Shown piece by piece: positions 8,481-61,225 of a stretch of 64,000 bases of DNA. Source of the DNA: Octopus vulgaris (lineage: Eukaryota). The stretch covers positions 28,210,001 to 28,274,000 of the forward strand of contig OX597833.1 of the NCBI GenBank assembly GCA_951406725.2, given 5' to 3'. The notes beneath the pieces are model-generated. The model had not been told where the DNA came from. It ran no database searches and saw only the letters and a list, made by a program, of their open reading frames with translations. Position numbers and translations under genes: made by a program. Numbering within the stretch: position 1 is the stretch's first letter; each line of letters opens with the position of its first letter.

Positions 8481-8516
<36 letters not shown>

Positions 8517-8527
8517 TATATAGAAGG

Positions 8528-8578
8528 AGCTTCTACAGGACTAGTACTGTTTCATTCAAGAGAAATCTTCAGGAAGCT
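8528..8578 (-). ncRNA. type I hammerhead ribozyme (left copy)
   Basis: Reverse complement of 12691-12741. Confidence 0.75.
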
Positions 8579-8982
8579 ATTTAACAAGAATTGTATTAGC
8601 ATTTATACATTTAGAGGAGTGGTGGTGGGGGACTTTTGGGGGTAGGCATAGCGCAAAATATCATACTTGGGGGAGTGGTCAAGGTAATAAAAAAATAAAA
8701 AAATAAAAAATAAAAAAATAAAAAGATAAAATAAAATAAAAATAAAAAATATAAAAAATATAAAAAATATAAAAAATATAAAAAATATATATAAAAAAAT
8801 ATATAAAAAAATATATATATAAAATATATATATAAAAAATATATATATAAAAAAGGGGGGATAGAGTTATAGGTAAATAAGGAGATTCTCACTTATACCT
8901 ATACACACATGTATACGTATCTACACACACATACGCACATACACATATATCTACACACACATACGCACATACACATATATCT

Positions 8983-9027
<45 letters not shown>

Positions 9028-9405
9028 CCTACACATACACACATACATACATACAAATATACATATACATATATATATATACAATCCAATACAGGCCCAT
9101 TCCCTAATTTTAATTTTATTATCTTCATTTATTACTTTTGTTATCTTTGATCGCTAAGGCTAAGAATCCTGGCAATAGCTGCTTGTCCATTTGTCTGTCT
9201 ACTAGAAGGCAAGTACTCATTCCCGCACGCACACTCATTAGCACGTACATTCACCCATTCGTACACTCATACACATACACGTACGCACGCGTTATATTCA
9301 TACATACAAACATCTACATACGTTCACGTATATACACATACGTACTCGTACCTACAGATTCGTGTCTACACTTTAGGAGGCTAGTCTATACATATACACC
9401 AATAA

Positions 9406-9437
<32 letters not shown>

Positions 9438-9488
9438 CCGCATATACATACACACACACACATATATACTCCTACATACAGATACATA

Positions 9489-9528
<40 letters not shown>

Positions 9529-9736
9529 TACATATATATATACATACATACACATACATACACATACACACATACACACACATACATACACATATATATA
9601 CATACACAAACATATATACACACACATATATATACATACACACATACACACATACATACGTATACATACCTACATACATCTATACATCCATACTTACATG
9701 CATTTATACGCATACACACACCCATCTATATATATG

Positions 9737-9767
<31 letters not shown>

Positions 9768-10046
9768 TCACACATACATATACAAATCTACGCACACACA
9801 TACATACATACACGTATACGCATACACGCACATACACATATACATGCGTACCCATACACGTGCACACACGCACGCGCATCCATATAAATACACACACACA
9901 CATATATATATACACGTGTGCAAGCATACATACATACTCATACGCGCACACATACTTACAAATACATATATGCACACACTTACACACATATATATACATA
10001 CACATATACATGCATACATACATATATGCATACATACACACACGCA

Positions 10047-10100
<54 letters not shown>

Positions 10101-11110
10101 CATAGACATATATACACATACATACACATACACATACGTACACACACATATACACATATATATATACATATATATATATATATACACATATACGCATACA
10201 TATATACACATATACATACATATACATACACACACACATAAATATATACATATACACTGATACACATACCCATACATACACATGCATATACTTATATTAC
10301 TACATACTCACATATATAGACATATATACATATACACACATACATATATACATGTACATACACATACGCATGCATATATATATATATATACATACATATA
10401 TATACACATATATATATATATATATATATACATACATACACACACACACACACATACATATACACATATACATGTATACATACGCAAAAATGATACGCAT
10501 ATATACACATACACACACACAGACAGATGCATATACATACATATATATATATACAAACTACATATCTATATAAATACATACATGATACACATATACACAC
10601 ACATATATATACATTCATGCATATACATATACAAGTATACATATGTTTGTGTATGTATACTTGTATGTATATGCATGAATGTATATATATGTGTGTGTAT
10701 ATGTGTATTATGTATGTATTTATATAGATATGTAGTTTATATATATATATATGTATGTATATGCATCTGTCTGTGTGTGTGTATGTGTATATATGCGTAT
10801 CATTTTTGCGTATGTATACATGTATATGTGTATATGTATGTGTGTGTGTGTGTGTGTATGTATGTATATATATATATATATATATATGTGTATATATATG
10901 TATGTATATATATATATATATGCATGCGTATGTGTATGTACATGTATATATGTATGTGTGTATATGTATATATGTCTATATATGTGAGTATGTAGTAATA
11001 TAAGTATATGCATGTGTATGTATGGGTATGTGTATCAGTGTATATGTATATATTTATGTGTGTGTGTATGTATATGTATGTATATGTGTATATATGTATG
11101 CGTATATGTG

Positions 11111-11145
<35 letters not shown>

Positions 11146-11224
11146 GTGTATATGTGTGTGTACGTATGTGTATGTGTATGTATGTGTATATATGTCTATG
11201 TATGTATATATATGTGTGTGTATA

Positions 11225-11262
<38 letters not shown>

Positions 11263-11537
11263 TGCGTGTGTGTATGTATGCATATATGTATGTATGCATG
11301 TATATGTGTATGTATATATATGTGTGTAAGTGTGTGCATATATGTATTTGTAAGTATGTGTGCGCGTATGAGTATGTATGTATGCTTGCACACGTGTATA
11401 TATATATGTGTGTGTGTGTATTTATATGGATGCGCGTGCGTGTGTGTGTATGGGTACGCATGTATATGTGTATGTGCGTGTATGCGTATACGTGTATGTA
11501 TGTATGTGTGTGCGTAGATTTGTATATGTATGTGTGA

Positions 11538-11576
<39 letters not shown>

Positions 11577-11778
11577 TATAGATGGGTGTGTGTATGCGTA
11601 TAAATGCATGTAAGTATGGATGTATAGATGTATGTAGGTATGTATACGTATGTATGTGTGTATGTGTGTATGTATATATATGTGTGTGTATATATGTTTG
11701 TGTATGTATATATATGTGTATGTATGTGTGTGTATGTGTGTATGTGTATGTATGTGTATGTATGTATATATATATGTA

Positions 11779-11818
<40 letters not shown>

Positions 11819-12281
11819 TATGTATCTGTATGTAGGAGTATATATGTGTGTGTGTGTATGTATATGCGGGTATATATATATATATATATATATGTATATT
11901 TATTGGTGTATATGTATAGACTAGCCTCCTAAAGTGTAGACACGAATCTGTAGGTACGAGTACGTATGTGTATATACGTGAACGTATGTAGATGTTTGTA
12001 TGTATGAATATAACGCGTGCGTACGTGTATGTGTATGAGTGTACGAATGGGTGAATGTACGTGCTAATGAGTGTGCGTGCGGGAATGAGTACTTGCCTTC
12101 TAGTAGACAGACAAATGGACAAGCAGCTATTGCCAGGATTCTTAGCCTTAGCGATCAAAGATAACAAAAGTAATAAATGAAGATAATAAAATTAAAATTA
12201 GGGAATGGGCCTGTATTGGATTGTATATATATATATGTATATGTATATTTGTATGTATGTATGTGTGTATGTGTAGGTATG

Positions 12282-12340
<59 letters not shown>

Positions 12341-12690
12341 AGATATATGTGTATGTGCGTATGTGTGTGTAGATACGTATACATGTGTGTATAGGTATAA
12401 GTGAGAATCTCCTTATTTACCTATAACTCTATCCCCCCCTTTTTTTATATATATATTTTTTATATATATATTTTATATATATATTTTTTTATATATATTT
12501 TTTATATTTTTTATATTTTTTATTTTTATTCTTTTATTTTATCTTTTTATTTTTTTATTTTTTATTTTTTTATTTTTTTATTACCTTGACCACTCCCCCA
12601 AGTATGATATTTTGCGCTATGCCTACCCCCAAAAAGTCCCCCACCACCACTCCTCTAAATGTATAAATGCTAATACAATTCTTGTTAAAT

Positions 12691-12741
12691 AGCTTCCTGA
12701 AGATTTCTCTTGAATGAAACAGTACTAGTCCTGTAGAAGCT
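12691..12741 (+). ncRNA. type I hammerhead ribozyme (right copy)
   Basis: AGCUUC | CUGAAGA | u UUC ucuu GAA u | GAAA CAG uacuaguc CUG UA | GAAGCU: 6-bp stem I, complete core, stems II and III, GUA cleavage triplet. Confidence 0.78.
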
Positions 12742-12822
12742 CCTTCTATATAATAAATTAATTTTACTCTGCTATGTATTGAGTACCTTACTTACTGTGG
12801 TTAACCCCGAATCAACCCGGGA

Positions 12823-12865
<43 letters not shown>

Positions 12866-18994: not shown

Positions 18995-19135
18995 TTAGAT
19001 GCCATACATCTTCTTTGTGTTCTGCCAGCAATGTTTTAGTACCACATCAATAAGGACATCCTTTAGTTGGGCCACTTCAAATGCAACTGCAACAGCAAAA
19101 CCTGGATGAGAGAATTTCATGTATCCCCGTGGCAC
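18995..19135 (-). CDS. TATDN2: TatD-family nuclease (TATDN2-like), last coding exon
   Basis: Acceptor gacag; VPRGYMKFSHPGFAVAVAFEVAQLKDVLIDVVLKHCWQNTKKMYGI*; phase 0 matches the previous exon. Confidence 0.88.
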   Translation of the reverse strand: MPRGYMKFSHPGFAVAVAFEVAQLKDVLIDVVLKHCWQNTKKMYGI

Positions 19136-19646
19136 CTGTCAAAAAAAATCAACAACAACAACTGCTGTTAAGTGGGAAGGCTCAATAGCATTAATAACAA
19201 TGACATGATGGGAACATTAATGTAATCCTTTAATCTGCTCAGTATAGCAACTGGATGTTCCCTCAATAAATCCTCTACTGCTTGTAATAGGCCACATGAG
19301 TCAGTAAAGAAGCTTTTAAATTGATCTGTCCAATTTAGTACTCAAACCCCTATAAAATAGGGATCATTTGAATCTGTATGGAAGGTTCTATATAATCATG
19401 ACCTGATACAGTAACTAAATGTTCTTCTCAATAAATACTAGTTTCTGAAATAGAGACCACATGATCCAGAGGATATATATATATATATACACACACATAC
19501 ACACACTCACAAAATATGGGGGTTTAGTTCACAGGTGATCTAAATGACTAGGTATGCTAGGTAAGTGCAGTAATGGATTACTAGGGCTCCAAGGTTATAG
19601 CCAAGACAATAGTTATGGAGCCATTGTAGATTTCCAATATAGCGGA

Positions 19647-20317
19647 TATATAATTGTTAAAGAGAACAAACGTTAAGGCAAGGCAAACATCTCAAGTCAT
19701 ATGCATTATTATTATTATTATTGGAAAAAAATTTGAAGTCTTACAGCTGTTTCTGGAATATCCCATAGTAGGGGATATTCTGTCAGAGACAAATAGGGAA
19801 AATGAAAAGGGTATAGATTAATGAAATGATGACAGAAGACAGGAGAGAAGGAATAAGGAAATGAAGAAAGGGAAGAAAAAAGGCATAAAAGTTCACAGTT
19901 CAACTTTCCAGTCGTGCAGAAGTCCGTCCCTAAGTCCTTAGGTGCAATCCTGTGTAAATCCATGTAGGTTAAAATCCTGATAGTGTAAATATCTAGAAAT
20001 AGATGCGAACCTATGCTAACAGAATGGTAGCAGAGGTGGCTTTTAAGTGGTAAAAAGAAAGAAAAATAAATAAATAGAAAGAGAGGTAGAGAGAGTGAGA
20101 GAGGAAATTAAAGATTGACATTAAGGATAAAATAAGGTATATAAAAATATAGTGTCTAAGAATATAGTGTACACTATATTTATATTTATCTTATTTTATC
20201 CTTAACGCCAATCCTTAATTTCCTCTCTCACTACCTCTCTTTCTATTTATCCAACAATAATAATATAACTTGAGATGTTTTCCTTGCTTTAACGTTGTCC
20301 TCTTTAACAATTATATA
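19647..20317. repeat. intronic fold-back element with degenerate hammerhead and nested palindrome
   Basis: Inverted arms ~19647-19728 / 20248-20317; palindrome ~20072-20248 centred on aatatagtgtacactatatt; HHR-like motif on minus at 19738-19790. Confidence 0.7.
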
Positions 20318-20615
20318 TATATATATATATATACACACATCCGTTTTTCCATGTTGGCATGGTTGGACAGTTAGACAGGAGGAACTGGCTAGACTACAAT
20401 TGTCTTGTGGTATGGTTTCTAAGGCTGTGTCCTCCATAACAACAACCACTTTACGGAGTATGCTGGGTGCTTTTCACATGCCACAGGTGCATTTTACTTG
20501 GCACCAACATCTGTATGTATGACCACGATTTTACATAGCTTGACATATCTTCTCAGATACAGCAAATTGCTATCTTTATCCTCTGGATCATGTGAGCAGG
20601 TCAAGTATGTGTGTA

Positions 20616-20661
<46 letters not shown>

Positions 20662-21493
20662 ACCTGTTCACTATAACAACTATGTGCACCTTCCCCTATA
20701 TACATTCATTAAAATAAAGACCACTTGATCCAGTATGAAGAGCTTCTATGTAAGTTACTTGTGCTGCTCAATGGAATGGTGAAAATATTATGAACGAACA
20801 GCTAAGTTTTAAATGAAATTTGAAACAAAAATGCTTTCTGGAGTAATCCATTGCATTATCACCCTTTAAGTGGTAGGAATATCGTCCAAGTCCCACCATC
20901 GGATGGTCTATTACTCTTCTCTTAAAATGGTGATTACAATGTCTATTATTTGCCGGAAGTTCTTGCTTTTAATATTTTCATCAATCATTAGGAACAACAA
21001 TTTGAGATAGAAAAGAGGAACAGAACCATTGATGAGACATTGTTTGTTACACCTACCATTCCAGCTCCACAACATAGATATTATAAAAGTTAAGAATGTC
21101 TAATATTATTGGTTTTAGTTTTGATATTGCATTTTGTGAACAATAGTGTTGTTGGTTACAGATTTCCAACAAATAAGGAATCACATTTCTAATGGCAAGA
21201 ATGATGTAAATCGTCTATGCAACATGAGAAGAACAAATACCAGGTGACTGTTTTGTTCAGAAGCACTGGTTTACTGAGTTACTCCGTGAACTTGTGCTTT
21301 CATCAAAGTATATTTGCAAGAGATATGCACATACATAGATTATATTTATACATCCTGTTTATATTGATATCTTAGCATTAATCTAATATTTGAAGTCTTC
21401 CATAACGTAAGTATATATACAGTACAATACATCCACAGCAAAGATAAGATGGAATGATCAGGATCAAGAATTCAACATCAGTTGAATTATTTC

Positions 21494-21711
21494 TTAACCG
21501 TTTAGCACTTAAACGAGCCATAATATTCTATTTGTTTTATGTTCAATCAGGTCAAATACAGTTTCTTACACCTATGCTATATTGTCATACTGAAAGTAAT
21601 CAAACCCATAATCGAAATCTCAAAGCTACAAGATAATGCACGATTAATTCAAAACAATGTAAATAAATAAGCATTACATGTGGCAAACTAATCTGAATGC
21701 TAAAGGGTTAA
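21494..21711. mobile_element. TTAA-flanked MITE (piggyBac-like ends); related copies ~26285-26480, 29860-30010, 39660-39825
   Basis: TTAA-ccgtttagca ... tgctaaaggg-TTAA; shared core gctacaagataatgca..taattcaaaacaatgt. Confidence 0.6.
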
Positions 21712-21894
21712 AACTACAAAATTTCAAACCAATTTCTCTCAACTGATGTCTTACAAAGAGTAGAGCTGTGAATCCAAGGTAACGTAATCCTGGATCCATA
21801 GTACCTTGAACAAAATTGGAATGGTTACAGATTAAATACCTTTGACCATCTGTTATGTAGGCTCAAACGTGGTTGATTTGGTGGGTCAAACAAT

Positions 21895-21931
<37 letters not shown>

Positions 21932-22004
21932 CATTTGGAATAACATGGAATAGCTCTCATGTTGACACAGACAAAATAACTATTTAAAAAAAATAATAAC
22001 TTAC

Positions 22005-22217
22005 AAGTCTAGGTACAAAATATGGTGAGTCTGTCTCCAGGAGAAGTCGGTCAAGAGGAATGTGATAGGCTGTGTTGTGTACTTCAAGGGCCGATGGGTA
22101 GGTCACCAAAGGAGTGAGGCCAATGAAGAGGTTCGGGAAGTAGGACAGCCACTCCTTAGCATACTTGAATGATTTGGTGAAACAGTGGCAATGAATACGG
22201 TAATCCACTGGAACATA
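22005..22217 (-). CDS. TATDN2: TATDN2-like exon
   Basis: ttccag|YVPVDYRIHCHCF...IPLDRLLLETDSPYFVPRL|gtaag; TatD HCF and ETDSPY motifs. Confidence 0.93.
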
Positions 22218-22710
22218 CTGGAAATAAGAGTTGTTTATATTTGTAGTTGTAAGTGAAACAACAGAGAAGACAATGATATTATCAACGGAAACAAGAATGA
22301 AAGAGGAAAAACAATGCTAATTAAAACGATAATGGCAACGACAATAGTGATAGCACTAATGATAATGATGAATACGAGAATGAGTGAAGGTAATGGTGGC
22401 TATTATGATAATAACAATGGTTATGTAAATAATAATGGTTTACATTGTTTCTAATTTAAGTACAAGGCCTGGAATTCTTGGTTGGGGTGTAAATAATCGA
22501 TTAAATCATTCCCAATATTTGACTGGTTCTATATTTTAACATCCCTACAGATATTAAAGGCAAAGTTGGCTGTGGTGATGTTTGAACCCAGAACATAAAG
22601 AGCTGATCAAAATACTGCAAGACATTATTTTCTGATGCTTCAACAACTCTGGCAATCCACTACACATCTGTCAAAATTAGTTTACATAATACTACTGATG
22701 ACGATTTAAC

Positions 22711-24730
22711 AATGTGGTTGACAGGGCTATTAGACAAAAGAAACAGGCTTGGAAGGACTGGAAGAACGGAGGTAGCAGGGAACTGTATCAGACTGCCAGA
22801 AGGGAAGCTAGGAGACAGGTTTATTTAGCCAGAGGGGAAGCAGATAAGTAAAAAAATTTGCCAATGTTCTGTGCCGTGAGGACCAAAGACTTGAGGTATT
22901 TCGTGTTGCAAGACAGTGTGTAAGAGAGAATCGTGATGTGGTAGGAGAGAAATGTGTTCGCATGGATGATGGTTCACTTGCGCTAAATGAGGATGCAAAG
23001 AGAGAGGTTTGGAGATGCCACTATGAAAGGTTGTTGAATAAGGAAAATGAATGGGATAAAGAGAGTCTGCCGAATGTCGACCCAACAGAGGGACCAGCTA
23101 TCTGAGTTGACAGTTCCTTGGTAGTTAAGGCAATTACAAGCATGAAAACAGGGAAAGCCCCAGGCCCATCAGGAATTACTGCAGAGATGCTCAAAATATC
23201 TGGCAGTGTCGGCTGTAGCCTAGTCACCCATATAGTTAACCAGGTGATACACGGAGGAGTCATACCCAATGACTGGTGTAGCAGCATAATAGTCAACTGC
23301 TACAAAGGTAAAGGTGACGCCCTAGATACAAATAATTACAGAGGTATCAAGCTGATGGATCAGGTAATGAAGATTACGGAGAGGGTCATAGCCCAACTGA
23401 TTAGGGAGAGAGACAGCTTGGATGAGATGCAGTTTGGTTTTGTGCCAGGGAAAAGCACCACTGATGCCATATTTCTGGTGAGACAGCTGCAGGAGAAATA
23501 CCTAGCCAAAGATAAGCCCCTGTACCTGGCTTTCGTTGACATGGAGAAGCCTTCGACAGGGTCCCCCGATCCCTTATCTGGTGGTCAATGAGGAAACTAG
23601 GGATAGATGAATGGCTGGTGAAAGCTGTGCAAGCCATGTACAGGAATGCTGTAAGTAAGGTTAGGGTTGGCAACGTGTACACTGAAGAATTCAAGGTAGA
23701 GGTTGGGGTCCACCAGGGTTCAGTCCTCAGCCCCCTCCTATTTATCATAGTCCTCCAGGCAATTACAGAGGAATTCAAGACAGGATGCCCCTGGGAGCTC
23801 CTCTATGCTGATGACCTTGCTCTAATTGCTGAGTCACTATCAAAACTGGAGAAGTTTCAGGTGTGGAAGGAGGGATTAGAATCGAGGGGCCTTAGAGTCA
23901 ACCTAGCTAAAACCAAAGTCCTAATAAGTAGGAAGGTAGACAAACCACAAATACCTTCAGGTAGATGGCCCTGCTCGATCTGTAGAAAAGGGTAGGTGGA
24001 AACTCTATAAGATGTACCCAGTGTAAGCTATGGACACATAAGAGGTGCAGCAATGTCAAAGGAAGGCTAACTGGGAAGATAGTTTTTGTATGTGGCAGAT
24101 GCTCAGGACCAATAAACACTGAAAATCTGCAGAAAACTTCTGTCACTTTCCAGGGGGAAAAACTAGAAGTAGTTGATAGCTTCCGTTATCTAGGTGACCA
24201 AGTCAGTAGTGGGGGTGGGTGTACTGAAAATGTAACTGCTAGAGTAAGAATAGCCTGGGCAAAGTTCAGGGAGCTCTTACCTCTGCTGGTGACTAAAGGC
24301 CTCTCGCTCAGAGTAAAAGGCAAACTGTATGATGCATGTGTACGAACAGCCATGCTACATGGCAGTGAAACATGGGCCATGACTGCCGAGGACATGCGTA
24401 AGCTCGCGAGAAATGAAGCCAGTATGCTCCGATGGATGTGTAATGTCAGTGTGCATACTCGACAGTGTTAGTACCTTGAGAGAAATGTTGGACCTAAGAA
24501 GCATCAGCTGTGGTGTGCAAGAGAGACGATTGCGCTGGTATGGTCATGTGCAGAGAATGGATGAAGATAGGTGTGTGAAAAAGTGCCAATCCCTAGTTGA
24601 GGGAACCTGTGGAAGAGGTAGACCCAGGAAACCCTGGGACGAGGTGGTGAAGCACGACCTTCGAACTATTGGCCTCACCGAGACCTTTGGAAATATGCTG
24701 TGCGTGAGAAGACCCGGCAGGACAAGTGAG
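22711..24730 (+). mobile_element. RTE-clade LINE, 5'-truncated and frameshifted, antisense within a TATDN2 intron
   Basis: GKAPGPSGITAEML, NYRGIKL, QFGFVPGKSTTDAIF, AFVDMEK, GVHQGSVLSPLLF, LLYADDL, MLHGSETW, RRLRWYGHV split across frames. Confidence 0.93.
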
Positions 24731-24829
24731 TCCAGCCCACTTATACATGTCTTTCCTCCCTTGGACACACAAAGCCCTGTTGAGGCAATCCGACGACAGG
24801 CACCCATGCCAACCTCCCTTCATTGGACA

Positions 24830-25430
24830 CTAAACTCTGCTTGCGAAAACCTGTTGGGGCAAGTGAAATCGGAATCGAAATTGAACCAATCCTATGACTG
24901 GCACCCGGCAGTTGCCAGGACTGCTGGACTGACTCCTGTGCAGGTGGCAAGTGAAGAAACACCATTTCGGCCCTGTGCTTGAGGAGATCCATTGAGTCAA
25001 GTACACCAACATCAAAATCAATGGAAACTGCAGTTGTGATCCCTGTGCTGGTGGCACGTAAAAAGCACCATCTGAACGTGGCCAATGCCAGCGCCGCCTA
25101 GACAGGCTTCTGTGCCAGTGGCACGTAAAAAGCACCATCCGAATCGTGGCCAATGCAAGCGCCGGCTTGACTGGCTTCCGTGCCGGTGGCACGTAAAATG
25201 CACCAATCCGATCGTGGCCGTTGCCAGCCTCGCCTGGCACCTGTGCAGGTGGCACGTAAAAAGCACCCACTACACTCACGGAGTGGTTGGCGTTAGGAAG
25301 GGCATCCAGCTGTAGAAACACTGCCAGATCAGACTGGAGCCTGGTGCAGCCTTCTGGCTTCCCAGATCCCCGGTCGAACCGTCCAACCCATGTTAGTGTG
25401 GAGAATGGACGTTAAACGATGATGATGATG
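24830..25430 (+). mobile_element. SINE-like element with tandem gtggcacgtaaaaagcacc units and a (gat)n tail; related copies ~3270-3470, 7960-8260, 44340-44540, 56050-56330, 61900-62110, 62240-62530
   Basis: Repeated motif, shared 3' body ggagtggttggcgttaggaagggcatccagctgtagaaa and tail gttaaacgatgatgatg. Confidence 0.75.
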
Positions 25431-25627
25431 ACACACAAAGCTGCATATTATGGGGCCATGGGTGTAATCAATTAGAATGATCCTACTATTTAACTGGCAC
25501 CTTATTTTATCAATACCAAAAAGGGTGAAAAGGTAATGTCAATCTTGATGAGAGTTGAATTCAGAAACCAATAACACCAGTTTTTATTGTAACCATGAGT
25601 GACAGTACAATAAGAAAAGATACTGAC

Positions 25628-25757
25628 CTTCTTAAGGATCTGTAGACAATCATCCTGTGCCTCCCTACAATGAATCACCAGTGGTTTCTGTACAGTAAGA
25701 GCCAGCTTGATCTGATGAATGAACACTTTCTTTTGAAGAGATGCTGTCTCCCAGAAC
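25628..25757 (-). CDS. TATDN2: TATDN2-like exon
   Basis: ttccag|(R)FWETASLQKKVFIHQIKLALTVQKPLVIHCREAQDDCLQILKK|gtcagt; TatD IHCR motif. Confidence 0.93.
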
Positions 25758-25945
25758 CTGGAATAACAATATTGCAGAAATATAGATTAGTGAGATTATG
25801 AGAATGAACGAGCAAGAGGAAGGACAGAGCAGAAGATACAAGAGACAGAATGAGATTGGTAGAAATAAACAAGGCAAAGAAGAACAGAATCTTCCTCCTT
25901 CCAGTAAATTGGGGAATCAAAAGTGTAGTCTCAGGACTATCTTAC

Positions 25946-26114
25946 CTTCCAGAATAATCTAGACCAATTTCTCCAATAGCGACCACTTTGGGTTGTTCTA
26001 TGCATTCTCGGAGTCCCTTCTCAGCAGCACTATCAAAGTTCTCAACATTTTTGGGGTGACAGCCCATAGCAAACCACATCTCACTTTCATTATTCAGACT
26101 TTTCCACAGACTTC
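25946..26114 (-). CDS. TATDN2: TATDN2-like exon
   Basis: tacag|(G)SLWKSLNNESEMWFAMGCHPKNVENF...PKVVAIGEIGLDYSG|gtaag; TatD GxHP and GEIGLDY motifs; phases 1 and 2 fit the neighbouring exons. Confidence 0.93.
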
Positions 26115-26226
26115 CTGTATTTTAACAAATAATTTCTAATTTAGGTATGTACAAAGTCAAAAATTTCAAGGGAAAAAGAAAAACAAATTATATTGATCTT
26201 AGTACTTCATTTATTTCATTGATATA

Positions 26227-26276
26227 TTCCACCATTGAATTTTGCTTTTTATAAAAAGCAAAATTCAATGGTGGAA
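26227..26276. repeat. perfect 50-bp palindrome, no spacer
   Basis: ttccaccattgaattttgcttttta / taaaaagcaaaattcaatggtggaa. Confidence 0.9.
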
Positions 26277-26890
26277 AGATTCAATTCTTTAGCATTTAAA
26301 CCAGCCATATCTAGCCCAAATATTCTGCCCATTTTATGTTCATAATAGCCAGATCCAATCATCTACACCTACCCTACAACACCATTCTAAAAATAACAGC
26401 AATTACTTAATCAAAATCTTGAAGCTACAAGATAATGCGTGACTAAATCAAAACAATCTGACAGAGTAATCTGAAAGCTCAACTCAGAACTAGTGGGATG
26501 CAAATAAATACAAGGCCAGGCACACAACACCAGTAGAAGTGTGTGTATCAAAAACTATTTGATACTGAATAGAGAGGACAAGATGCGGGTATATAATCGA
26601 GGACTGTGTGAGAAATAAAATGTATAATGCTGTATAGTAGTTAATGTACAGGATTAAATGATAGTGTATGGTAGCAAATAAAGATATATGAGATGTAGGA
26701 TGTGTGATGTATGATAAAGGACTACATGAGGTGTGACAGAGTATGGCAGTGAACACAGAGGACTGAGGTGGGTGTAAGATGTGTGTTGTTAAGATGATTA
26801 TGTAAGATGTGTGATGTATATGGTGATAACTATAGAGACTGTGTATATGTGATAGTATATGTAAAATGTGTGTGTGTGTGTGTGTGTGTA

Positions 26891-28134
26891 CCATAAAAAC
26901 CGATGTAATTTATGCACCTTTTTTTTTCACAAAAATAAACTTCAGGGGGTGCATGAATTACATGAACAGATCATTTCTAGAATTTTCTTGAAATTGTTTT
27001 TTGTTGGTAAAAGATGTACGAAACAAACATTTGTACTGGAAGTTGACTCAATGTCAGAATAAGTTTTTACAGAAAAAGTATTAGCTTAAATATAATGAAG
27101 TTAACTTTTATTTATGTTGGACAGTATAATGCTTACTTCTTCTGTATAAAATTACAAAAACAATTTAATGGTTAACTACTTTATGAAGTCTGACGGTGGT
27201 AAACACAGTCTGGGCCATATCTTACATTGTTTGGAGTTTCTACCTATCAAAATGGAGCACCATTGACATACATAGTGACATGGATATTCTTGACTGAAAA
27301 AATGTAATATGGATAATCTTGATTGTATGGTTTTATTTTTGTCTGTTTATTACTAGGCACAGTTTTGTCGTACAGTTTACGCCAATTTTGAACATTGGTT
27401 TCCTTAACATTAAAATGCCTTTCGGCAGCTCTATTGCCGCATTCAAACGTATATTCAACACATTTAATTTCTCCTTTGCAGTAAGCGATTCATCACTTCT
27501 GCCCATACTGACAATAATGGTATGAAAAATTTTAAAGTTTGCTTGACATTTTATAAATGTGAAAGGGATTAAAATTTTGATAGTACAATTCAAAGGTTCC
27601 AATAAGAATAGGCAGAAAAGAATTGTTTACATAATCATTTTGATTAGTCACCTTCCTCCCTCAGTTGAGTAAAAGTGTCATCCAAGCTGATGCTTACTGG
27701 TAATTAAACTTAATTTGCAACACTTGTGTATATTTACCAGCTTTGTTTTTGTTGGTAATTCTTAACAACTTTTCCTGTGATCATGATTTGAGAAGACATA
27801 CAGCAGTATGCTAAAGATTGGACATAATCTCTTGATGGCAAGAAATGTAAAATAAAGTTTATTATAAACAACACTTTGTAATTCAATAGCTTTCAATGTG
27901 ATACTTGTTAAACAGAAATTATTTTTATTTAATGAAAATTTAATAAAATCTAATAAATAACTGAAATTATGCTAAATACAACTAAATTGAAAACCTTTTG
28001 CCCCTGGTTATATCAACAATTCTGAAAACTTTCAGGTACAAATTTTACATGTGTAGAAGCTTTTTTTAACAAATTTTATCCCGAAAATCACCTGCATAAA
28101 TGCACGGGTGTGCAAATTACATGGGTTTTTATGG
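26891..28134 (-). mobile_element. pogo-family DNA transposon, internally deleted
   Basis: TA-flanked TIRs ccataaaaacc.atgtaattt / aaattacatgggtttttatgg; frameshifted Brinker-type DNA-binding domain TAKEKLNV/VEYTFECGNRAAERHFNVKETNVQNWRK at ~27375-27490. Confidence 0.8.
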
Positions 28135-28457
28135 TATATGGAGGTGTGTAAGACATGATTATAACTGGTAGTGAATGTAGAGGACTATATGAGATGTAAT
28201 GTGCATGAAGGTGTATGGTAGCAGAAATAGAGGACTATATGTGGTGTTTGTAAAATGTAGGATATAGTATTTGGTAATAAATATAGAGGATTGTGTGTGT
28301 GATAATGTATGACTGCAGAGACGAAAGAGTACATCGTCAAGAGATCTGAAGAGACGATGAATTGCAGACTTGTCCAACCCATGTCAAAATAAACAAAACA
28401 GGTGCCAAAGCAACAACAACAACAATTATGATAATATAATGAATAAATGTCAATTAC

Positions 28458-29722
28458 CATCTGGGCTGAAGCTTTTTGGTTCACAGAACACAGCCACACA
28501 TCCTCCATAGTTGGCAGGAAATGTATCAGCATTGTCAAGACGATATTTCTTAAAAGACCCTTTAAATGGTAGACGGTTGAAGAGGAAGTCAACATGGCAA
28601 TGGGAATCTATAAAGGAATTAGCAAGGTTTGAACATTTGTCCAGAAACATTTTCTTCCAGTTTTTACCATAGCTAGGGATACTGCTGCTACAACTACTAC
28701 TACTACTGCTGCTGCTACTGCTTGTGTTATACAAGCTCATGTGGTTATCTACCAAGGATCTAGAGAAGGGGAAAGCTTCAGAGAGTTTCTTACGAGAGTG
28801 TTTTTTCCATTTGTAGTATTGCGGTGTCCCTGACAATGACTTGGAAAGTCTCTCTAGTTTATGCTGTGATAAGTATTTCTCAAACTTCCAACGTTTACTG
28901 GTGCTGTCAGAGGTTTGATTCCCCATAGAACTTTTCACAGATAGAGGTGTTGATGTTAAGAAGTTCAGTTGGGTTTGTGGAGGGGTCAAAGACCTTGATG
29001 CATCCTTTGGCAAAGTGACAGGTGACGCAAATAGTGATGTGTTGCAATTTGGAGAAACAAGCATTTTAGACCAATTGGCATCGGATCTGTAATGGGCTCT
29101 TTCTTCTTTGTTGAAACTGGAACTCGTGGAATAAGTATGACGCCTTCTTCTTTTTGGACTGCTGCTAGCTATGCTTTTGTAACTGTGCAACTTAGGGCTA
29201 GAACAATGTCTGTGGCTGTTTTTCACATCTAGAGAATACCGACTTCTTTTAGTCTTGTGTATATTTTCATTTTCTTCACAACAACCAGATTTTGAGAATG
29301 AATCACTTTTAACAGGTGTCACATCCTGTTCTATGGAATCAGAACTCTTAGAAATTGATGACAGGGATTTTCTGCGATTGAACTTGGGTGTTTTAGTGGC
29401 CATTTGGCTGTGATTTGGAGACAAACTATTGATGTAATCAGAATAATAATAATTAGGTGTTGGAATATAACTTAGTTTGCCTTCTTGGGTCACATCAACA
29501 ATGAAGAAAGAAGATTCTGAAGCAGAACAAGATGAAGAACCCGTAGAGAGTGGATTTACTCCAGACTTATATACATCCAATATTCCTTTACTGAGTGTGG
29601 ATTCCCTCTGGATATCTTGAGCCAAAACGTTGTTACTCAAACTCTGGATAGAATTACTGTAGAGCCAAGAAAAACTTCGATACAGAACATTCTTGAAGTA
29701 TTCAGAAGAATTCAAAGTAAAT
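28458..29722 (-). CDS. TATDN2: TATDN2-like large exon (Ser/Lys/Arg-rich extension plus start of the TatD domain)
   Basis: ORF 28450-29751; acceptor tttcag at 29723-24, donor gtaatt at 28457; ends with FIDSHCHVDFLF...GGCVAVFCEP, the TatD HxH motif. Confidence 0.93.
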
Positions 29723-30267
29723 CTGAAATTATAAATGAAAAGATTTGTCACTCAGTCTGAATTGCTAGTTAGTTGGATAGATTTACCTCTAACCAATGTT
29801 AAAGGTAATGTTTAATCCTGCCACTATATTGTCAATTAACAAAAAAATTGGCTAGATCTGACCTCTCACACATATCCTGCAATATCTTTCTAAACCTAAA
29901 CAATCACATCATGAAAATATCTTAGCTACAAGATAAAGCATGACTAATTCAAAACAATGTGAATAAATAAGCATCACATTTGACAGAGTAATCTGAATGC
30001 TAAATGTTTAAGTGGGTTAGTAACATGGGATCTGATACAATGTAAAGAGGGCTGGTAACCTGGGACTTGGTCCAGTTTTGAATGGGCTGATATTGAAAGG
30101 GTTAACAACGACATAGATGAAGTTGGTGATGATTATGATTGCATTGTTACTAGTTAATAAAAATGTCAATGATTGCAACAGCAATAGTAACAGTGGTTGT
30201 CAGAGTAATGACACCAGAAATAATAACAGTGGTAAGGATGATGGCAGACACTAACAAAGATACTTAC

Positions 30268-30325
30268 AGGGATAAAATCTGCAACTGAGGAACAGTCTTG
30301 TTTACCAATCTCGTTGAAAGTAAAT
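30268..30325 (-). CDS. TATDN2: TATDN2-like putative 58-nt exon
   Basis: ttgcag / gtaagt; phase 1->2 gives (D)LLSTRLVNKTVPQLQILS(L), in frame with the exons on both sides. Confidence 0.6.
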
Positions 30326-31138
30326 CTGCAAAGAGATAGAACTTTCTTAGAAACTTGTGCACATTTCAGTTCTCGGAGTGAGAGAGGGAAACAGAGAGGT
30401 GAAAGGAGAATAAAAAAAAAATAATAATAAAAGAGTGGTTTCCCCATTAGACAACAAACTCATACATTCAACAGCAACAAAAAATTTAATGACCAAATGA
30501 ACATTTCACTTATTGGATTCTATATCATCCTCAGAAGTTTGGTGTCCTATCCAGGAGTTTTATCACCTAGTCACCAGAGATAAACGAGATAGTACTAGAC
30601 ACACAACACCCTCAGATCATATTGGATCATTACTTGCTCAACGGGGATAAATACATAATTATTTCAGGGAAAGGTTATAATCAACAGACTAGTAACTTAT
30701 CTGGTAGGGAGAAATATTAGTGGAAAGAACAGTAGAAAATATTCTGGGTTCAAATTCTCTCAAATTACAAGATGAAAAGCAGAGATGCAATGGTGGTTAA
30801 AGCAACCGTAATTTAGTCTATAATGATATGGTATCTTCATTTTAGAGATAGCTGTCATCATTTACAACAAAGTCAACAAAGGATCCCAAATTTTCGCAAA
30901 TCATACCCTACAAACGTAGAAAAAATACAAAAGGATGATTTAGCCTAAAGCAGTCCAAAATATTTTTTAAAAAAAAGGACAATGGTCACGATTGGAACGT
31001 CTTTGACAATAGTTCTAATCAATCAGGATTGACTTGGAGTTAAATAACATCAACAATGTATAACTTCAAACTCCCTACCATCACCACCACCACTACTATT
31101 ATCATCATCATCATAACAGTATTAAACAAGATATTTAC

Positions 31139-41315: not shown

Positions 41316-42313
41316 ACCTATACCAAACCAACAACACGTTGACCTTGCTGATATATTTAAAAAGAAGGCAATCTAACATCAACAAGTGAACATTATTCAT
41401 ATTACTCACATAGAGATATTTGGCTCAATCAGAATTGTTTGATAACTAGCAAATATTTAGGCAGACTGCCAAGACAAAAATCGCAGAATTTGATCTGTAC
41501 AGGTGTCTACACGTCTGAAATCTTTAAAAACTCCAGTATTACAATAAAGCAAATCAGTATGTCCAGAGTTGTATTTAAAACTAGTCTAAGAGATCTTTGT
41601 AAATTCTGATTTTACTAGACCCCACAAAATAACACTATAGTGTACATGACAACTAATAAGAGTCTGATAAATGTTTAGGTATATAATTGTCTAGGTATAT
41701 AATTACTGAGCACTTATAGATTACATTAACATGTGGTTTCTATTTAAGATAATTAATGACAGAATTTAAACTGATCAACATGATGTTACAATCAAATTCA
41801 AGCTGTTGGAATGAGACTAAGTCTATTTGCCTTTAACCAACTTGATACCTCATACGTTCATTGCTTATACTCTGTATTTGCCTTATTAAAGTCTAAAAGC
41901 AAAAAAAAAAAAAAAAACAGTGAATGTGACATCCACATAATAGAATAAAATCAAATAATTTTGAAGACATGGATATGTAATGTATATAGCTGCAGGCATG
42001 GCTGTGTGGTAAGAAGCTTCCTTTTCAGCTACATGGTCTCAGGTTCAGCCCCAGTGAGTAGACATAAACTGAAAGAAGCGTGTGTGTGTGTGTGTATGTA
42101 TATATATATATATATAACATTATATAAAAGGGCTTAGTAAAATAAATTACTTTGCCACATACTGAACTCATTAGAAATAGCAGCTAAAAAAAATTTTTTT
42201 TTTAGCTATTTCTAATACTTAAAGAAAATCTCTCTCAGATAGTGTTTGCTCAAACCAACTCACGAAAGTATGGGGGTAAAAACATTAAAAAACTCACAAG
42301 TGCAAAGGTTATT

Positions 42314-42365
42314 TGAGAACATACGTTTCTAGATTAGTCAAATCGACATTTCTTTCGTCAGCTCA
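42314..42365 (-). ncRNA. minimal type I hammerhead ribozyme (left arm)
   Basis: Reverse complement of 42884-42935 with one change in the stem III loop (cgtatg vs cgtacg). Confidence 0.6.
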
Positions 42366-42883
42366 GAACTCCTTGATTCGGATTTGGGAACACTGAAAGT
42401 GGGAGCATACCCTTTTGGCTTCTTATCACCACCGGACATCCGCTCGAACTAACAGTGCTAACAAATTCAAAATATGCAAGCGAAGAATTTCTGCTCTCCC
42501 CCTTCCACCAGCGTGGGTTAAAATTGGCAAACACTATGTTTTATCGGTGAAAACCGAAGCATTAAACAGAGAGAAATGATTCGCCTTAAATGGTCCCTTT
42601 ACATACTGAATACTTGGTGAAATTGATTAATAATTAATTAATTTTACCCTCAATTGTTGAAATTATAATTCATTTCTCTCTGTTTAATGCTTCGGTTTTC
42701 ACCGATAAAACATAGTGTTTGCCAATTTTAACCCACGCTGGTGGAAGGGGGAGAGCAGAAATTCTTCGCTTGCATATTTTGAATTTGTTAGCACTGTTAG
42801 TTCGAGCGGATGTCCGGTGGTGATAAGAAGCCAAAAGGGTATGCTCCCACTTTCAGTGTTCCCAAATCCGAATCAAGGAGTTC

Positions 42884-42935
42884 TGAGCTGACGAAAGAAA
42901 TGTCGATTTGACTAATCTAGAAACGTACGTTCTCA
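42884..42935 (+). ncRNA. minimal type I hammerhead ribozyme (right arm)
   Basis: UGAG | CUGACGA | a AGA aau GUC gauuu GAC uaa UCU a | GAAA C guac G UU | CUCA; palindromic stem III ACGUACGU. Confidence 0.68.
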
Positions 42936-44037
42936 AATAACCTTTGCACTTGTGAGTTTTTTAATGTTTTTACCCCCATACTTTCGTGAGTTGGTTTGAG
43001 CAAACACTATCTGAGAGAGATTTTCTTTAAGTATTAGAAATAGCTAAAAAAAATTTTTTTTTTAGCTATTTCTAATGAGTTCAGTATGTGGCAAAGTAAT
43101 TTATTTTACTAAGCCCTTTTATATAATGTAATATTTTGAATTCGCCTTAAATGGTCCCTTTACATACTGAATACTTGGTGAAATTGATTAATAATTAATT
43201 AATTTTACCCTCAATTGTTGAAATTATATATATATATATATACATATAGAAGATAAAAGATAGATAATTACAGGGATCCTAGGGGGAGTATTAGGGAACC
43301 TCAACGAAGAGATATAGATGACAATTGACCATTGCACTCAAGAAACTTATCAGGAATTATTATTACGATTATTTCATTAATATGTGATAATCATGGAACA
43401 TTTGTTGTTTCATTTTTAATTCTTCTTCACTTTTTATCTCACATTCCAACTCCACCCCCACCACCCTCCCTCCTGAAATGTAAGTAGTCACGTCACTCCT
43501 CTACAACAAGAAACCCATTCTCTCTACTTCTTACCCACCTAGCAAATAGTTCCCCCTCCCCACTCAGGATTCATAATCTCGCAAGCTGCATAACAACCCC
43601 ACTAGTGCTCATGGCAGAAAAAAAATAAGTACCCAGTACCTACTGTAAGGTGTTTGGCATAGGAATGATATCTAGCCATAGAAACTATGCCAGTCCCTGG
43701 GCCCATTAGATTCTGTCAAACAGTACAACCCATACCAGCATGTCACATGGATGTTAAATGATGATAAATGAATGAATGAATAAAGAGGGCAAAGTATAAT
43801 AATCTAGAAAATTGAAAGTTTTTGAAAGTTCTGAGAATATTTTGATTGATGTTTTTTTTTTCTAGTTATCTCATAAAAATCTTTTTTATCAAGTCCATGG
43901 TTGCATATTGTGTGGTCAGATTTCTAAAAAGTCATATTCTTTGAATAAAGAATAGAGTTGAAGACAGAGTGTTTAATTAGTAAACAAAGGGATTCAGCTA
44001 GTATGCTATTCATAACTGAAGACAGTAGAGATATTCT

Positions 44038-52186: not shown

Positions 52187-52730
52187 TGGGGTTGGACAAA
52201 ATAATGGAAACACCTAGCATCATAATTTTGAAATATCTATAAAACCATCAAAGGCTTGTTTATTTATTTATTTTTTTTTATTTATTATTAGTGTTGCTTA
52301 AAATGTTTTGCTGTTTCTTTTTAGATATCATCAGAAAAAGGTAATTAAAATTCAATAAAATGACATTTATCGGACTCTCAGAGTTCAAATTGTTGGTGCT
52401 TGTATGGCAGGTGCTAGCATAACGCAAACAGCCAAAATGTTTGGTGTATCAAGAAGTACTGTCTCAAAAGTAATGACAGCCTTTGAGAAAGACGGAAAAA
52501 ACTCCGGTAGAAAACCAAAACTTTTAGATAGGAACTGTCAGATTATTACACGAATTGTTAGAAAGTATCACAAAAAACAGCTCCCAAAATTACTGCAGAG
52601 CATAATGACCACCTCAAGAACCCAGTTTCCACAAAAACTGTTTGCCGGGAGCTGCACAAAGCCAGATTTAATGAGAGGGCTCAAATCAGAAAACCATTAC
52701 TTTCAAAAACAAATGTTGCAAAGCGTTTAG
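52184..52730 (+). mobile_element. Tc1-like transposon 5' part
   Basis: TIR tactggggttggacaaaataatggaaacacc; HTH GASITQTAKMFGVSRSTVSKVM and SGRKPKL. Confidence 0.85.
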
Positions 52731-56339: not shown

Positions 56340-57090
56340 CGATGTTCATGTACTTGACTCAACAGGTCTCCTCAAGCACAGCGGGATGTTCTGGAATCCA
56401 AGGTACTTAGAATGGGCAGGGGCTATCCAGAACTGGTGCAGGAAGCAGCCCGGGTCTTTGCAGTCACAGCATATCTCCAGAGATCTCGGTCCTTCGCCAT
56501 TGCCTCAGTGAGGCCCAACGCTCTCAGGTCATGCTTGACTACCTCATCCCATGTCTTCCTGGGTCTACCTCTCCTCCTGATACCTTCAACTGTTTGGGAG
56601 TGGCACTTCTTCACACATCTCTCCTCATCCATCCGCAGTACATGACCATACCATCGCAAGCGTCGCTCTTGCACACCACATCTGATGCTTCTTATGTCCA
56701 ACATTTCTCTCAGGGTGCTTACCCTCTGTCATGCGCGCACACTGACATTACACATCCAGCGGATCATGCTAGCTTCATTCCTTTCAAGTCTACGCATGTC
56801 CTCAGCAGTCACAGCCCATGTTTCACTACCGTGAAGCATGGCAGTTCACACACATGCATCATACAATCTACCTTTCAATCTGAATGAGAGACCCTTTGTC
56901 GCCAGTAGGGGTAGGAGCTTTCTAAAATTTGCCCAGGCTATTCATATTCTAGTGGTGACACTCTCTGAGCATCCACCCCCACTACTAACTTGGTCACCTA
57001 GGTAGCAGAAACTATCAACTACTTCTAGTTTCTCCCCCTGGCATGTGATGGAATCTGTTTCCTGAGTCTCTGTGGTGTCTATTGTCCCTA
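56340..57090 (-). mobile_element. RTE LINE 3' fragment
   Basis: EKLEVVDSFCYLGD, MLHGSETW, RRLRWYGHVLRM, GRPRKTWDEVV. Confidence 0.88.
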
Positions 57091-59699: not shown

Positions 59700-61225
59700 A
59701 AGCACAGCAAATTGCTAATTGTCTCAGTCCTTTGTCATCTTTGTGAGGCTCTGCTTCTTTAAATCATTTTTAACCGCTTCACCCCATGTCTTCCAAGGTT
59801 TTCTTCTTCCACAGGTCCCCTCCACATTTAGAGATTGGCACTTCTTTATGCAGCTGTCTTCATCCATATGCATCACATGACCATACTAGTGCAGTCATCT
59901 CTCTTGTATACTACAAACCCAATTTATAATAATGCTTCTTATACCTAATTTTTCTCTCCACACATTTAAACTTTGTTGTACATGCATATGGACATTGCAC
60001 ACTCAACAAAGCATGTTGGTTTCGTTTCATTTCAAGCCTTAGCATGTCCTCTGCAGTCATGGCCCACATTTTCTACCATGTTGCTACTGTTCATACACAA
60101 GCATCATTCATACAATCTACTTTACTCTCTGAGGGAGAGGTCCTTTGTTCAACCAAATTCTAATTTGAGCAACTACACTTTCAGAACATCCTCCTCCACT
60201 GCTAATTTGGTCACTTAGATAATGAAAACTTTCTGTTACCTCTAAAGATCTCCCTGGGCATTGCAGAAAATCTATTTTCTGTGTTCTTAGTGTTTGTATT
60301 TTCTTGTACATCTGCCACACACAAAGACTACTTTCTCTGTTAAACTTCTTGTGATTCCACTGCACTGCTCATTTATCCATAGCTTGCACTGCCAATTCAT
60401 ACCTACATCTTTACTACATATCGAGCAGAACCATTTTCCTGAATAGATTAGTAATTTGTCTACTTTCTTGTTGACTAGTAGTACTGTGATTTTTGCTAAA
60501 TTAACTCTCTCTGTGGCCCTTTCATTCTGAGCCTTGCTTCCACACCTGATATTTCTTCTCTAATTCTACTATAGATTCAGCTATAAGAACAAGGTCATCA
60601 GCATAAAGAAGCTTCCATGAGCAATCACTTTTAAATTCCTCTGTTGTGACCTGGTGGACTATAAAACAAGATGGGGCTAAGAAATGAGCATTGGTGAACT
60701 ACCTACACACTAAACTTGTTGCTACACACGTTGCTGATTTTCACCTTACAGACTGCATCCCTGTACATGACTTGGGCAGCTCTCACCAACCACTCATCTA
60801 CCCCTAGCTTCTGCAGCAACTACCTGATGGTTTATTTTTTACTAAATGCTTCTCCTGCAGGTACCTTGCTAGGAAGATAGAGTCAGTAGTGTTTCTCCCT
60901 GGCACAAAACCAATCTACACCTCTAGGTTAACTATCTTCCTAATGAGTTGAACTATGACCCTTTCTGTAACTTTCTTCATCTGGACCAACAATTTGATAC
61001 CTCTGTAATTACTTCAGTCTACAGTAGTTGACTAGAATGCTAGTCATTGGGTATGACCCCTTTCTGGATGACCTGATTAACTATACAAGTGACTAAGCTA
61101 TATTCCACTTTACCAGATATTTTAAGCATCACAGTGGTAATTCCAGATAGGCCAGGGGCTTTCCCTGTCTTCATATCCTTAATTATTGCCTTATTTATCA
61201 TGTAACTACCAACTCAGATAACTCT
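59700..61225 (-). mobile_element. degraded RTE LINE (same family as 22711-24730)
   Basis: MKTGKAPGLSGITTVMLKISG, KSDCSWKLLYADDLVL, LEVTESFHYLSDQISSGGGCSES. Confidence 0.85.

Follow-up and report, generated by a model that had tools for sequence, protein, structure and literature searches.

A young fold-back insertion in the Octopus vulgaris genome, probably of a non-autonomous Penelope-like element carrying a hammerhead motif

This work concerns a 64,000-nt stretch of the Octopus vulgaris genome (assembly GCA_951406725.2, contig OX597833.1, positions 28,210,001 to 28,274,000 of the forward strand; hereafter the window, whose numbering is used throughout) and an insertion of 1112 nt within it, at 42117-43228. 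With a probability of about 0.7, we consider it to be a young copy of an abundant non-autonomous Penelope-like element (PLE) of Octopus. Its unit would be a 561-nt PLE end module that lacks an open reading frame (ORF) and combines a hammerhead ribozyme (HHR), an end signal and a tail. What the sequences show directly is the anatomy of the insertion, the abundance of its family, variable points of inversion and an end motif that recurs in a second element of the window. A preliminary description of the locus had proposed a retrozyme-like element. The protein-free, HHR-bearing retroelement of that proposal stands, but the locus holds only 1.16 direct units and one sense HHR.

Anatomy of the insertion and of a second fold-back element

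The element consists of an inverted arm followed by a direct part of 1.16 units (Table 1), and its length equals 2 x 561 - 10 nt. The 89-nt direct repeat at both ends of the direct part has a spacing of 561 nt and is one base longer than previously given. The inverted arm, 462 nt long, is the reverse complement of 43129-42670. A gap of 7-10 nt separates its outer end (unit position 462) from the point where the direct part restarts (470-473), and its inner end lies at the unit boundary. The complement of the hexamer found at the inversion junction is present once in the direct part. Both flanks of the element consist of TA repeats, (TA)9 on the left and (TA)n at 43224-43243 on the right, within which a target site duplication (TSD) is unreadable. 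The longest stop-to-stop frames had 60 codons, and Pfam gave no match for the three frames of this class. The 561-nt period, the inverted copy of the body, the flanking (TA)n, the lack of an ORF and, as near-identical arms differing by a few mutations indicate, the recent date of insertion had all been recognized in the preliminary description.

The differences between the two arms are a single C>T of CpG type in HHR stem III and, in a hairpin, a flipped A/T spacer together with a 3-nt indel. Compared with its counterpart at 42170-42216, the hairpin at 43033-43076 displays the pattern of a quasi-palindrome template switch. The simplest account would be a single such switch in the right arm, which would have perfected the hairpin and flipped its centre; the 3-nt form of the left arm is carried by other family copies. 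At 16 of 36 variant rows, both arms had a common letter unlike the family majority. Because so many letters are shared against this majority, both arms must stem from one source. A young insertion fits this comparison of the arms, which argues against an artefact of read duplication. The copy itself is probably dead.

A second element about 30 kb away had the same layout and the same end motif. Its arms aligned with 2151 matches, 20 mismatches and 160 gap columns, tail included. Its HHR differs from that of the first element (12691-12742 and 8527-8578; 6-bp stem I, palindromic stem III), and the predicted minimum-energy fold of the HHR dimer has a hammerhead shape. In both elements, the inverted arm stops at AAGC(T)CCTTYTATATAAT plus two bases. 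In a comparison with the 12,792 windows of the plus strand, the two sites matched only each other; the motif of the first element also had minus-strand matches in its own left arm and at one further place, 43805. A motif found at the ends of two otherwise unrelated sequences points to a fixed end signal rather than to random permutation.

The second element constitutes a 4.3-kb near-perfect palindrome with about 1.9 kb of mostly TA/CA-type microsatellite in each arm; this interior may be host sequence that a PLE end took with it. In the ribozyme of the second element, stem II begins with U.U, a feature also known from one axolotl retrozyme ribozyme (PMC7229834). An A/T-rich stretch of 21 nt in the tail of the first element (43191-43211) matched 12750-12770 at 19 of 21 positions (E 2e-4). 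It directly follows the end motif in the second element, whereas about 60 nt separate the two in the first. The long tail of the first element may thus be composite, with the reservation that the low complexity of the stretch makes a chance match possible. The tail of the second element ends, just before (TA)n, in a predicted stem-loop with an A/C-rich loop (12796-12826). This recalls the AC-rich stem-loop where an anole PLE starts cDNA (PMC11167929).

Table 1. Features of the insertion and of the comparator element, in positions of the window
Feature	Position	Strand	Score
Target microsatellite on the left, (TA)9, following (TG)n	42099-42116		
Inverted body copy, with the first end site at its outer end; A/T hairpin in the 3-nt GCT form, as in other family copies	42117-42578	-	
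HHR copy of the inverted arm; stem III carries C>T, its palindrome still pairing via G.U	42314-42365	-	
Inversion junction; TGAATT in both templates (42667-72 reversed; 43137-42), one A missing at the join	42574-42582		
Upstream tail copy, the last 89 nt of the upstream unit; 100% identical to 43140-43228	42579-42667	+	
One complete non-coding 561-nt unit, 34% G+C; member of an abundant family	42668-43228	+	
Predicted long imperfect stem with two terminal arms, one of them the HHR	42672-43021	+	z -3.9
Type I hammerhead motif with long stem II and palindromic stem III; predicted cut 42931/42932	42884-42935	+	
Perfect 21-bp A/T hairpin; spacer flipped and 3 nt lost relative to the left arm	43033-43076	+	
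End motif AAGC(T)CCTTYTATATAAT where the inverted arm stops; common to the second element (12737-12756)	43111-43129	+	
One-sided tail of about 99 nt with 15-bp A/T hairpin; missing from the outer end of the inverted arm	43130-43228	+	
Right (TA)n; boundary ambiguous from 43224	43229-43243		
Comparator element with matching layout: inverted arms of 2.1 kb around a centre of 8 nt, a tail of about 72 nt on one side, (TA)n on both flanks	8513-12828		

Hammerhead motif, RNA fold and family copies

The sense HHR is composed of stem I (42884-87/42932-35), CTGACGA (42888-94), GAAA (42920-23) and the palindrome ACGTACGT (42923-30). A descriptor of the motif matched four times in the 64 kb, both strands included, whereas 100 Markov resamples averaged 0.18 matches; all four matches fell within the two fold-back elements. 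The minimal HHR with palindromic stem III described earlier is present as a motif. One caveat was missed then: both arms of this copy have A.A at 42895/42919, where stem II should close. Rfam did not recognize a hammerhead either: at gathering score there was no match in the window, and at E<=10 none of the 15 matches in 42000-43400 belonged to a hammerhead family. The best of the Rfam matches, a plant microRNA model, was set aside since it merely reflects the inverted arms. The locus has one sense HHR, separated by 527 bp from its antisense partner. The active monomer was computed at -0.2 kcal/mol versus a minimum of -7.8 kcal/mol, and the isolated HHR region was no more stable than its shuffles (z +0.74). 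As modelled, the 8-nt palindrome of stem III allows a dimer.

In other copies of the family, 42919 was T in 49%, 72%, 84% and 50% of depth in four sequencing runs; this T pairs with 42895 and closes stem II. Among the 40 of 139 variant rows listed, none touched the catalytic core. A diverged relative seen in one contig of run X17 (42909-42935) had a longer stem III and a GUA cut triplet and could fold as a monomer.

The predicted fold of 42668-43030 is a long stem with two arms, a stability reached by none of 100 shuffles (z -3.9); for the minus strand, the values were z -2.5 and 1 of 100. Folded as a circle, the unit reached -157 versus -109 +/- 7 in 30 Markov resamples. The predicted stability of the stem is the best point in favor of the preliminary description. 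When single variants were folded into 42668-43030, the mean ddG was +0.28 versus +0.70 under the null (P 0.09), with 6 of 36 rows breaking a predicted pair; majority alleles alone gave P 0.15 in the same set. These 36 rows are from the 40 listed, and compensating partners may lie among the remaining ones of the 139. The majority letters at 42994 and 42995 strengthen the outer stem. In the computed fold of a read-through RNA of the locus, 457 of 463 bases of the left end pair with the right arm and both ribozymes are buried; such an RNA of this copy would form a 460-bp hairpin. With its one sense HHR and this pairing, the locus cannot supply the two cuts that would set free a 561-nt circle.

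The unit or part of it occurred in 20 of 24 listed runs (9 studies, four organism labels). None of these runs is recorded as RNA; X15 and X17 were guessed to be RNA, and the contigs are no evidence of transcription, strand, splicing or circles. The contig comparison spanned 42668-43600 minus 43216-43255. Aligned contigs numbered 3390 in X1 and 1349, 65 and 54 in three further runs. Summed depth in X1 was 2e4 to 1.5e6 on the unit versus 44.7 on the flank, which gives a contrast with the flank and no copy number; 43256-43600 was covered by a single low-depth contig in this run. The family is abundant. Opposite-strand joints were found in other copies at 42769/42912 (X17) and 43084/43120 (X3), one contig each. 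In X17, a loose end of 255 nt ahead of 42862, one of 24 listed out of 287, was matched by eye to the reverse of about 42737-42762. Head-to-head inversions are thus recurrent, and their position varies. At the level of the family, 561 nt is a candidate unit, the 43228-42668 junction lying outside the compared stretch. Two one-contig skips (42779-42881 and 42842-43144) were rejected as introns, as they had no GT-AG ends. Two metagenome scans, one with a tail stretch and one with an HHR motif, returned 0 matches each.

Origin of the insertion

Five of seven features of a PLE-mobilised insertion were found. A partial tandem is given by the 89-nt direct repeat with its period of 561, similar to a pseudo-long terminal repeat (pLTR). 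An inverted 5'-truncated copy adjoins it, with a breakpoint that varies, as judged by the other joints in other copies. The tail is one-sided, but about 99 nt long (about 72 nt in the second element). A type I HHR lies inside the repeat, recognized by its motif though unscored by Rfam, and the target is an A/T-rich microsatellite, (TA)n on both sides of both elements. An ORF for reverse transcriptase (RT) and GIY-YIG, as in an autonomous PLE, was absent from the element, with frames of <=60 codons and 0 of 3 Pfam matches.

For the PLE partner, the template and the priming, we infer the following course. An autonomous PLE would provide its RT/GIY-YIG protein, which would bind a family RNA of more than one unit in trans. 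This protein would nick the (TA)n DNA and begin cDNA synthesis at two internal RNA sites, 43228 and 43129, with about 99 nt between them. The cDNA begun at about 43228, 650 nt long, would run through the unit junction, and the one begun at 43129 would measure 462 nt. Joining of the two at the 6-nt microhomology TGAATT, with one base lost, would produce the inverted arm, the partial tandem and the one-sided tail. Tandem source RNAs would be the only place for the HHR to act, as a dimer, and the ends of the insertion would be set without it. These ends were not supported as HHR cut sites: the predicted cut is about 200 nt away from 43129 and about 300 nt away from the end at about 43228, and the ends follow the tail pattern of PLEs.

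The ends of the arms match the arithmetic of twin priming on a two-unit RNA, which suggests this process, at one locus only. We slightly prefer joining of two primed cDNAs over cDNA fold-back; fold-back of a single cDNA fits this locus too, and the second element better. The template switch formerly proposed at the inversion is compatible with the microhomology at the junction, which also fits a join of two cDNAs. As for copying over slightly more than one round, 1.16 units do need a more-than-unit template or a jump, but PLE insertions commonly have this layout. The more plausible template would be a linear tandem read-through RNA; a circle is less likely, and a jump of the RT is rather unlikely. 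This locus cannot discriminate between circle and tandem. Its succession of tail, body and tail is no new evidence for a circle, since the layout is standard for PLEs and a circular template had been proposed for them earlier.

Some observations weigh against a PLE derivative as described here. No autonomous partner was found, and a Pfam scan detected no remnant of a PLE ORF in the unit or among 14 frames of the window. The tail of about 99 nt compares with 30-40 nt in the literature. For the family, fixed outer ends are suggested only by the motif shared with the second element, with 24 of 287 loose ends listed, and the variant evidence comes from 40 of 139 rows listed. The 43228-42668 junction was unseen in other copies within the compared stretch, either end of which was overrun by 12 of the 3390 X1 contigs. 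Finally, the active HHR dimer of this copy was computed at -15.0 versus a dimer minimum of -24.1 kcal/mol. Naiad elements were considered as partners and discarded, as they are described as being without canonical HHRs and as mere remnants in cephalopods (PMC8557442).

An improbable alternative would have 5'-truncated ends of autonomous PLEs stacked upon each other. The sequence 42668-43228 would then be a terminal module, 561 nt no family-wide unit, and the upstream 89-nt tail copy the result of an RT jump or of a second insertion into the element's own A/T-rich end. According to published accounts, PLE insertions are mostly 5'-truncated and PLEs nick their own end region. The inverted arm stops <=3 nt from the unit boundary. 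Of all bins of the unit, the first has the least family depth, and few contigs cross 42668, a pattern confounded by the stretch edge and by divergence. However, the unit contains neither start nor remnant of an ORF, the predicted long stem spans its 5' part, the small distance between arm end and restart is the one expected of a single dimeric template, and a 99-nt X1 contig of depth 341 (flank 44.7) overruns 42668 by 13 letters. We consider it quite unlikely, too, that the element is a retrozyme in the strict sense, in which HHR-cut 561-nt circles would be the template and genomic copies would be circularly permuted without fixed ends. Such circles are known for metazoan retrozymes (PMC7229834); they would account for the 1.16 direct units and would suit the stable predicted fold, linear or circular, as well as the paired stem II base of the family majority and the invariant core of the rows listed. 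Against this stand ends remote from the cut site, the one sense HHR of the locus, the PLE-type shape of the HHR, an end motif common to an unrelated element whose arm stops at the same point, and variant alleles that do not significantly favor the long stem. In addition, one of nine Xenopus retrozyme dimers was cleaved in vitro (Li 2026, bioRxiv 10.64898/2026.07.22.740005), and no reads ended at the HHR site in an anole PLE (PMC11167929).

Long near-perfect inverted arms in a TA target, where no TSD is readable, might also suggest a DNA fold-back element or miniature inverted-repeat transposable element with long terminal inverted repeats, or else an assembly artefact from a palindromic read; both are very unlikely. 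Symmetric terminal repeats and a fixed inner structure were not found: the ends are asymmetric with a tail on one side only, the inner junctions vary among copies, and HHRs occur in both such elements, with four of four descriptor matches. This largely refutes the DNA element, and the artefact is contradicted by arms that differ by mutations, one of which is a variant carried by other copies.

The non-autonomous PLE remains our preferred reading. A bolder version of it, which we regard as doubtful, would hold that a very abundant, still active 561-nt HHR RNA family makes unit-length circles and that a PLE enzyme inserts them from two fixed internal priming sites. If so, the insertions would record, copy by copy, the retrozyme circle cycle together with the two-site initiation seen in vitro, and the shared end motif would be a cis signal mobilising any upstream RNA, such as the 2 kb of microsatellite in the second element. 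The family RNA would then have a viroid-like fold and be inserted from one dimeric or circular RNA.

In any case, the family provides test material for how PLE inversions and tails form, and for the role of the HHR or of a circle. Being abundant and young, with a long tail and a short unit, it would offer thousands of insertions to be scored for end, junction and unit number in one assembly. Octopus is known for heavy RNA editing. Fold-back insertions would give long double-stranded RNA on read-through, which may be of interest in this respect.

The element lies about 12 kb upstream of coding exons for a TATDN2-like TatD nuclease (18998-29727, minus strand; weak further match at 30276-30326). 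One of these exons is about 1.3 kb long, and an exon translation of the window was 100% identical to O. vulgaris TATDN2. A broken non-LTR retrotransposon with reverse transcriptase and PHD-finger matches occupies 23096-24979, with related pieces at 56452-57048 and 59770-61223. The stretch 25043-25267 holds 3.4 tandem copies of a 68-nt unit inside a dispersed repeat recurring several times in the window. A helix-turn-helix frame at 52359-52727 resembles the N-terminus of Tc1/mariner transposases.

Relation to known systems

The type of element is expected, as PLE ends with HHRs and non-autonomous derivatives have already been described. Departures from the published pattern are modest: the 99-nt tail, the strongly folding 561-nt unit and the end motif shared with a cargo-laden element. 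For O. vulgaris, a 2026 repeat annotation lists 190 PLE families, which together account for 6.83% of the genome and of which 31 have inserted recently (PMC13282606); its main text and one supplement mention neither hammerhead nor retrozyme. No published hammerhead or retrozyme family from octopus or cephalopods was found in a search outside Repbase, Dfam and subscription journals, and the supplements of Cervera 2014/2020 and Li 2026 may list cephalopod HHRs.

PLE insertions are described as containing a partial tandem, an adjacent inverted 5'-truncated copy and a 30-40 bp tail at one end; their microsatellite bias hides TSDs, and non-autonomous PLEs exist (Craig 2021, PMC8557442). The endonuclease-positive (EN+) PLEs Penelope/Poseidon and Neptune resemble the octopus element in these traits and also in the HHR within the repeat and the junction microhomology (PMC8557442, PMC3846280). 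They differ by their RT-GIY-YIG ORF, their shorter tail and a unit that in octopus measures 561 nt as a whole. In vitro, a PLE protein nicked A/T-rich DNA on both strands and started cDNA at two internal RNA sites bounding the tail, without a need for ribozyme cleavage (Frangieh 2024, PMC11167929). Chlamys PLEs such as MRC1 are likewise non-autonomous, with pLTRs and head-to-tail insertions, but they are algal, mostly without HHRs, and their partner is known (PMC8557442).

For the palindromes of PLEs, cDNA fold-back has been favored (Arkhipova 2013, PMC3846280). No paper on twin priming in PLE insertions was found, as judged by titles and abstracts. Twin priming was reportedly described for L1 by Ostertag and Kazazian in 2001, and junction microhomology is said to occur there as well. 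In L1, too, the inverted segment ends beside the restart of the direct segment, with a small loss (review PMC9148063). The octopus element differs from it in having neither poly(A) tail nor TSD, and in arms that duplicate each other, as the template would be a tandem.

The HHR itself is close to those of PLEs, which have a long stem II, a short stem I and a palindromic stem III, and of which opposite-strand pairs lie 100-700 bp apart; a circular RNA template was proposed for PLEs on this occasion (Cervera 2014, PMC4209133). The 4-bp stem I, the small stem III that would require a dimer and the opposite-strand pair of the octopus element all conform to this pattern. Where G10.1-C11.1 is usual, however, its stem II has A-U in the family and A.A in this copy, and its cut triplet ends in U.

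The octopus unit resembles metazoan non-LTR retrozymes in being non-coding, abundant and low in G+C, in its head-to-tail period and stable predicted fold, and in a type I HHR whose stem III is palindromic. Its length falls within the 51-972 bp reported by Li 2026, whose sampling as described includes no mollusc, but exceeds the 150-450 bp of Cervera 2020 (PMC7229834), whose main text does not mention octopus. The locus differs in that two head-to-tail units, each with a complete HHR, are replaced by 1.16 direct units with one sense HHR, and in an inverted arm and a tail of PLE type. Li 2026 asks for two tandem ribozymes, and by this criterion the locus is no active retrozyme, whereas the family may be one. 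The labels retrozyme and PLE derivative nearly merge here, since the same work places animal retrozymes as sister to PLE pLTRs and derives them from PLE ends (Li 2026, bioRxiv 10.64898/2026.07.22.740005).

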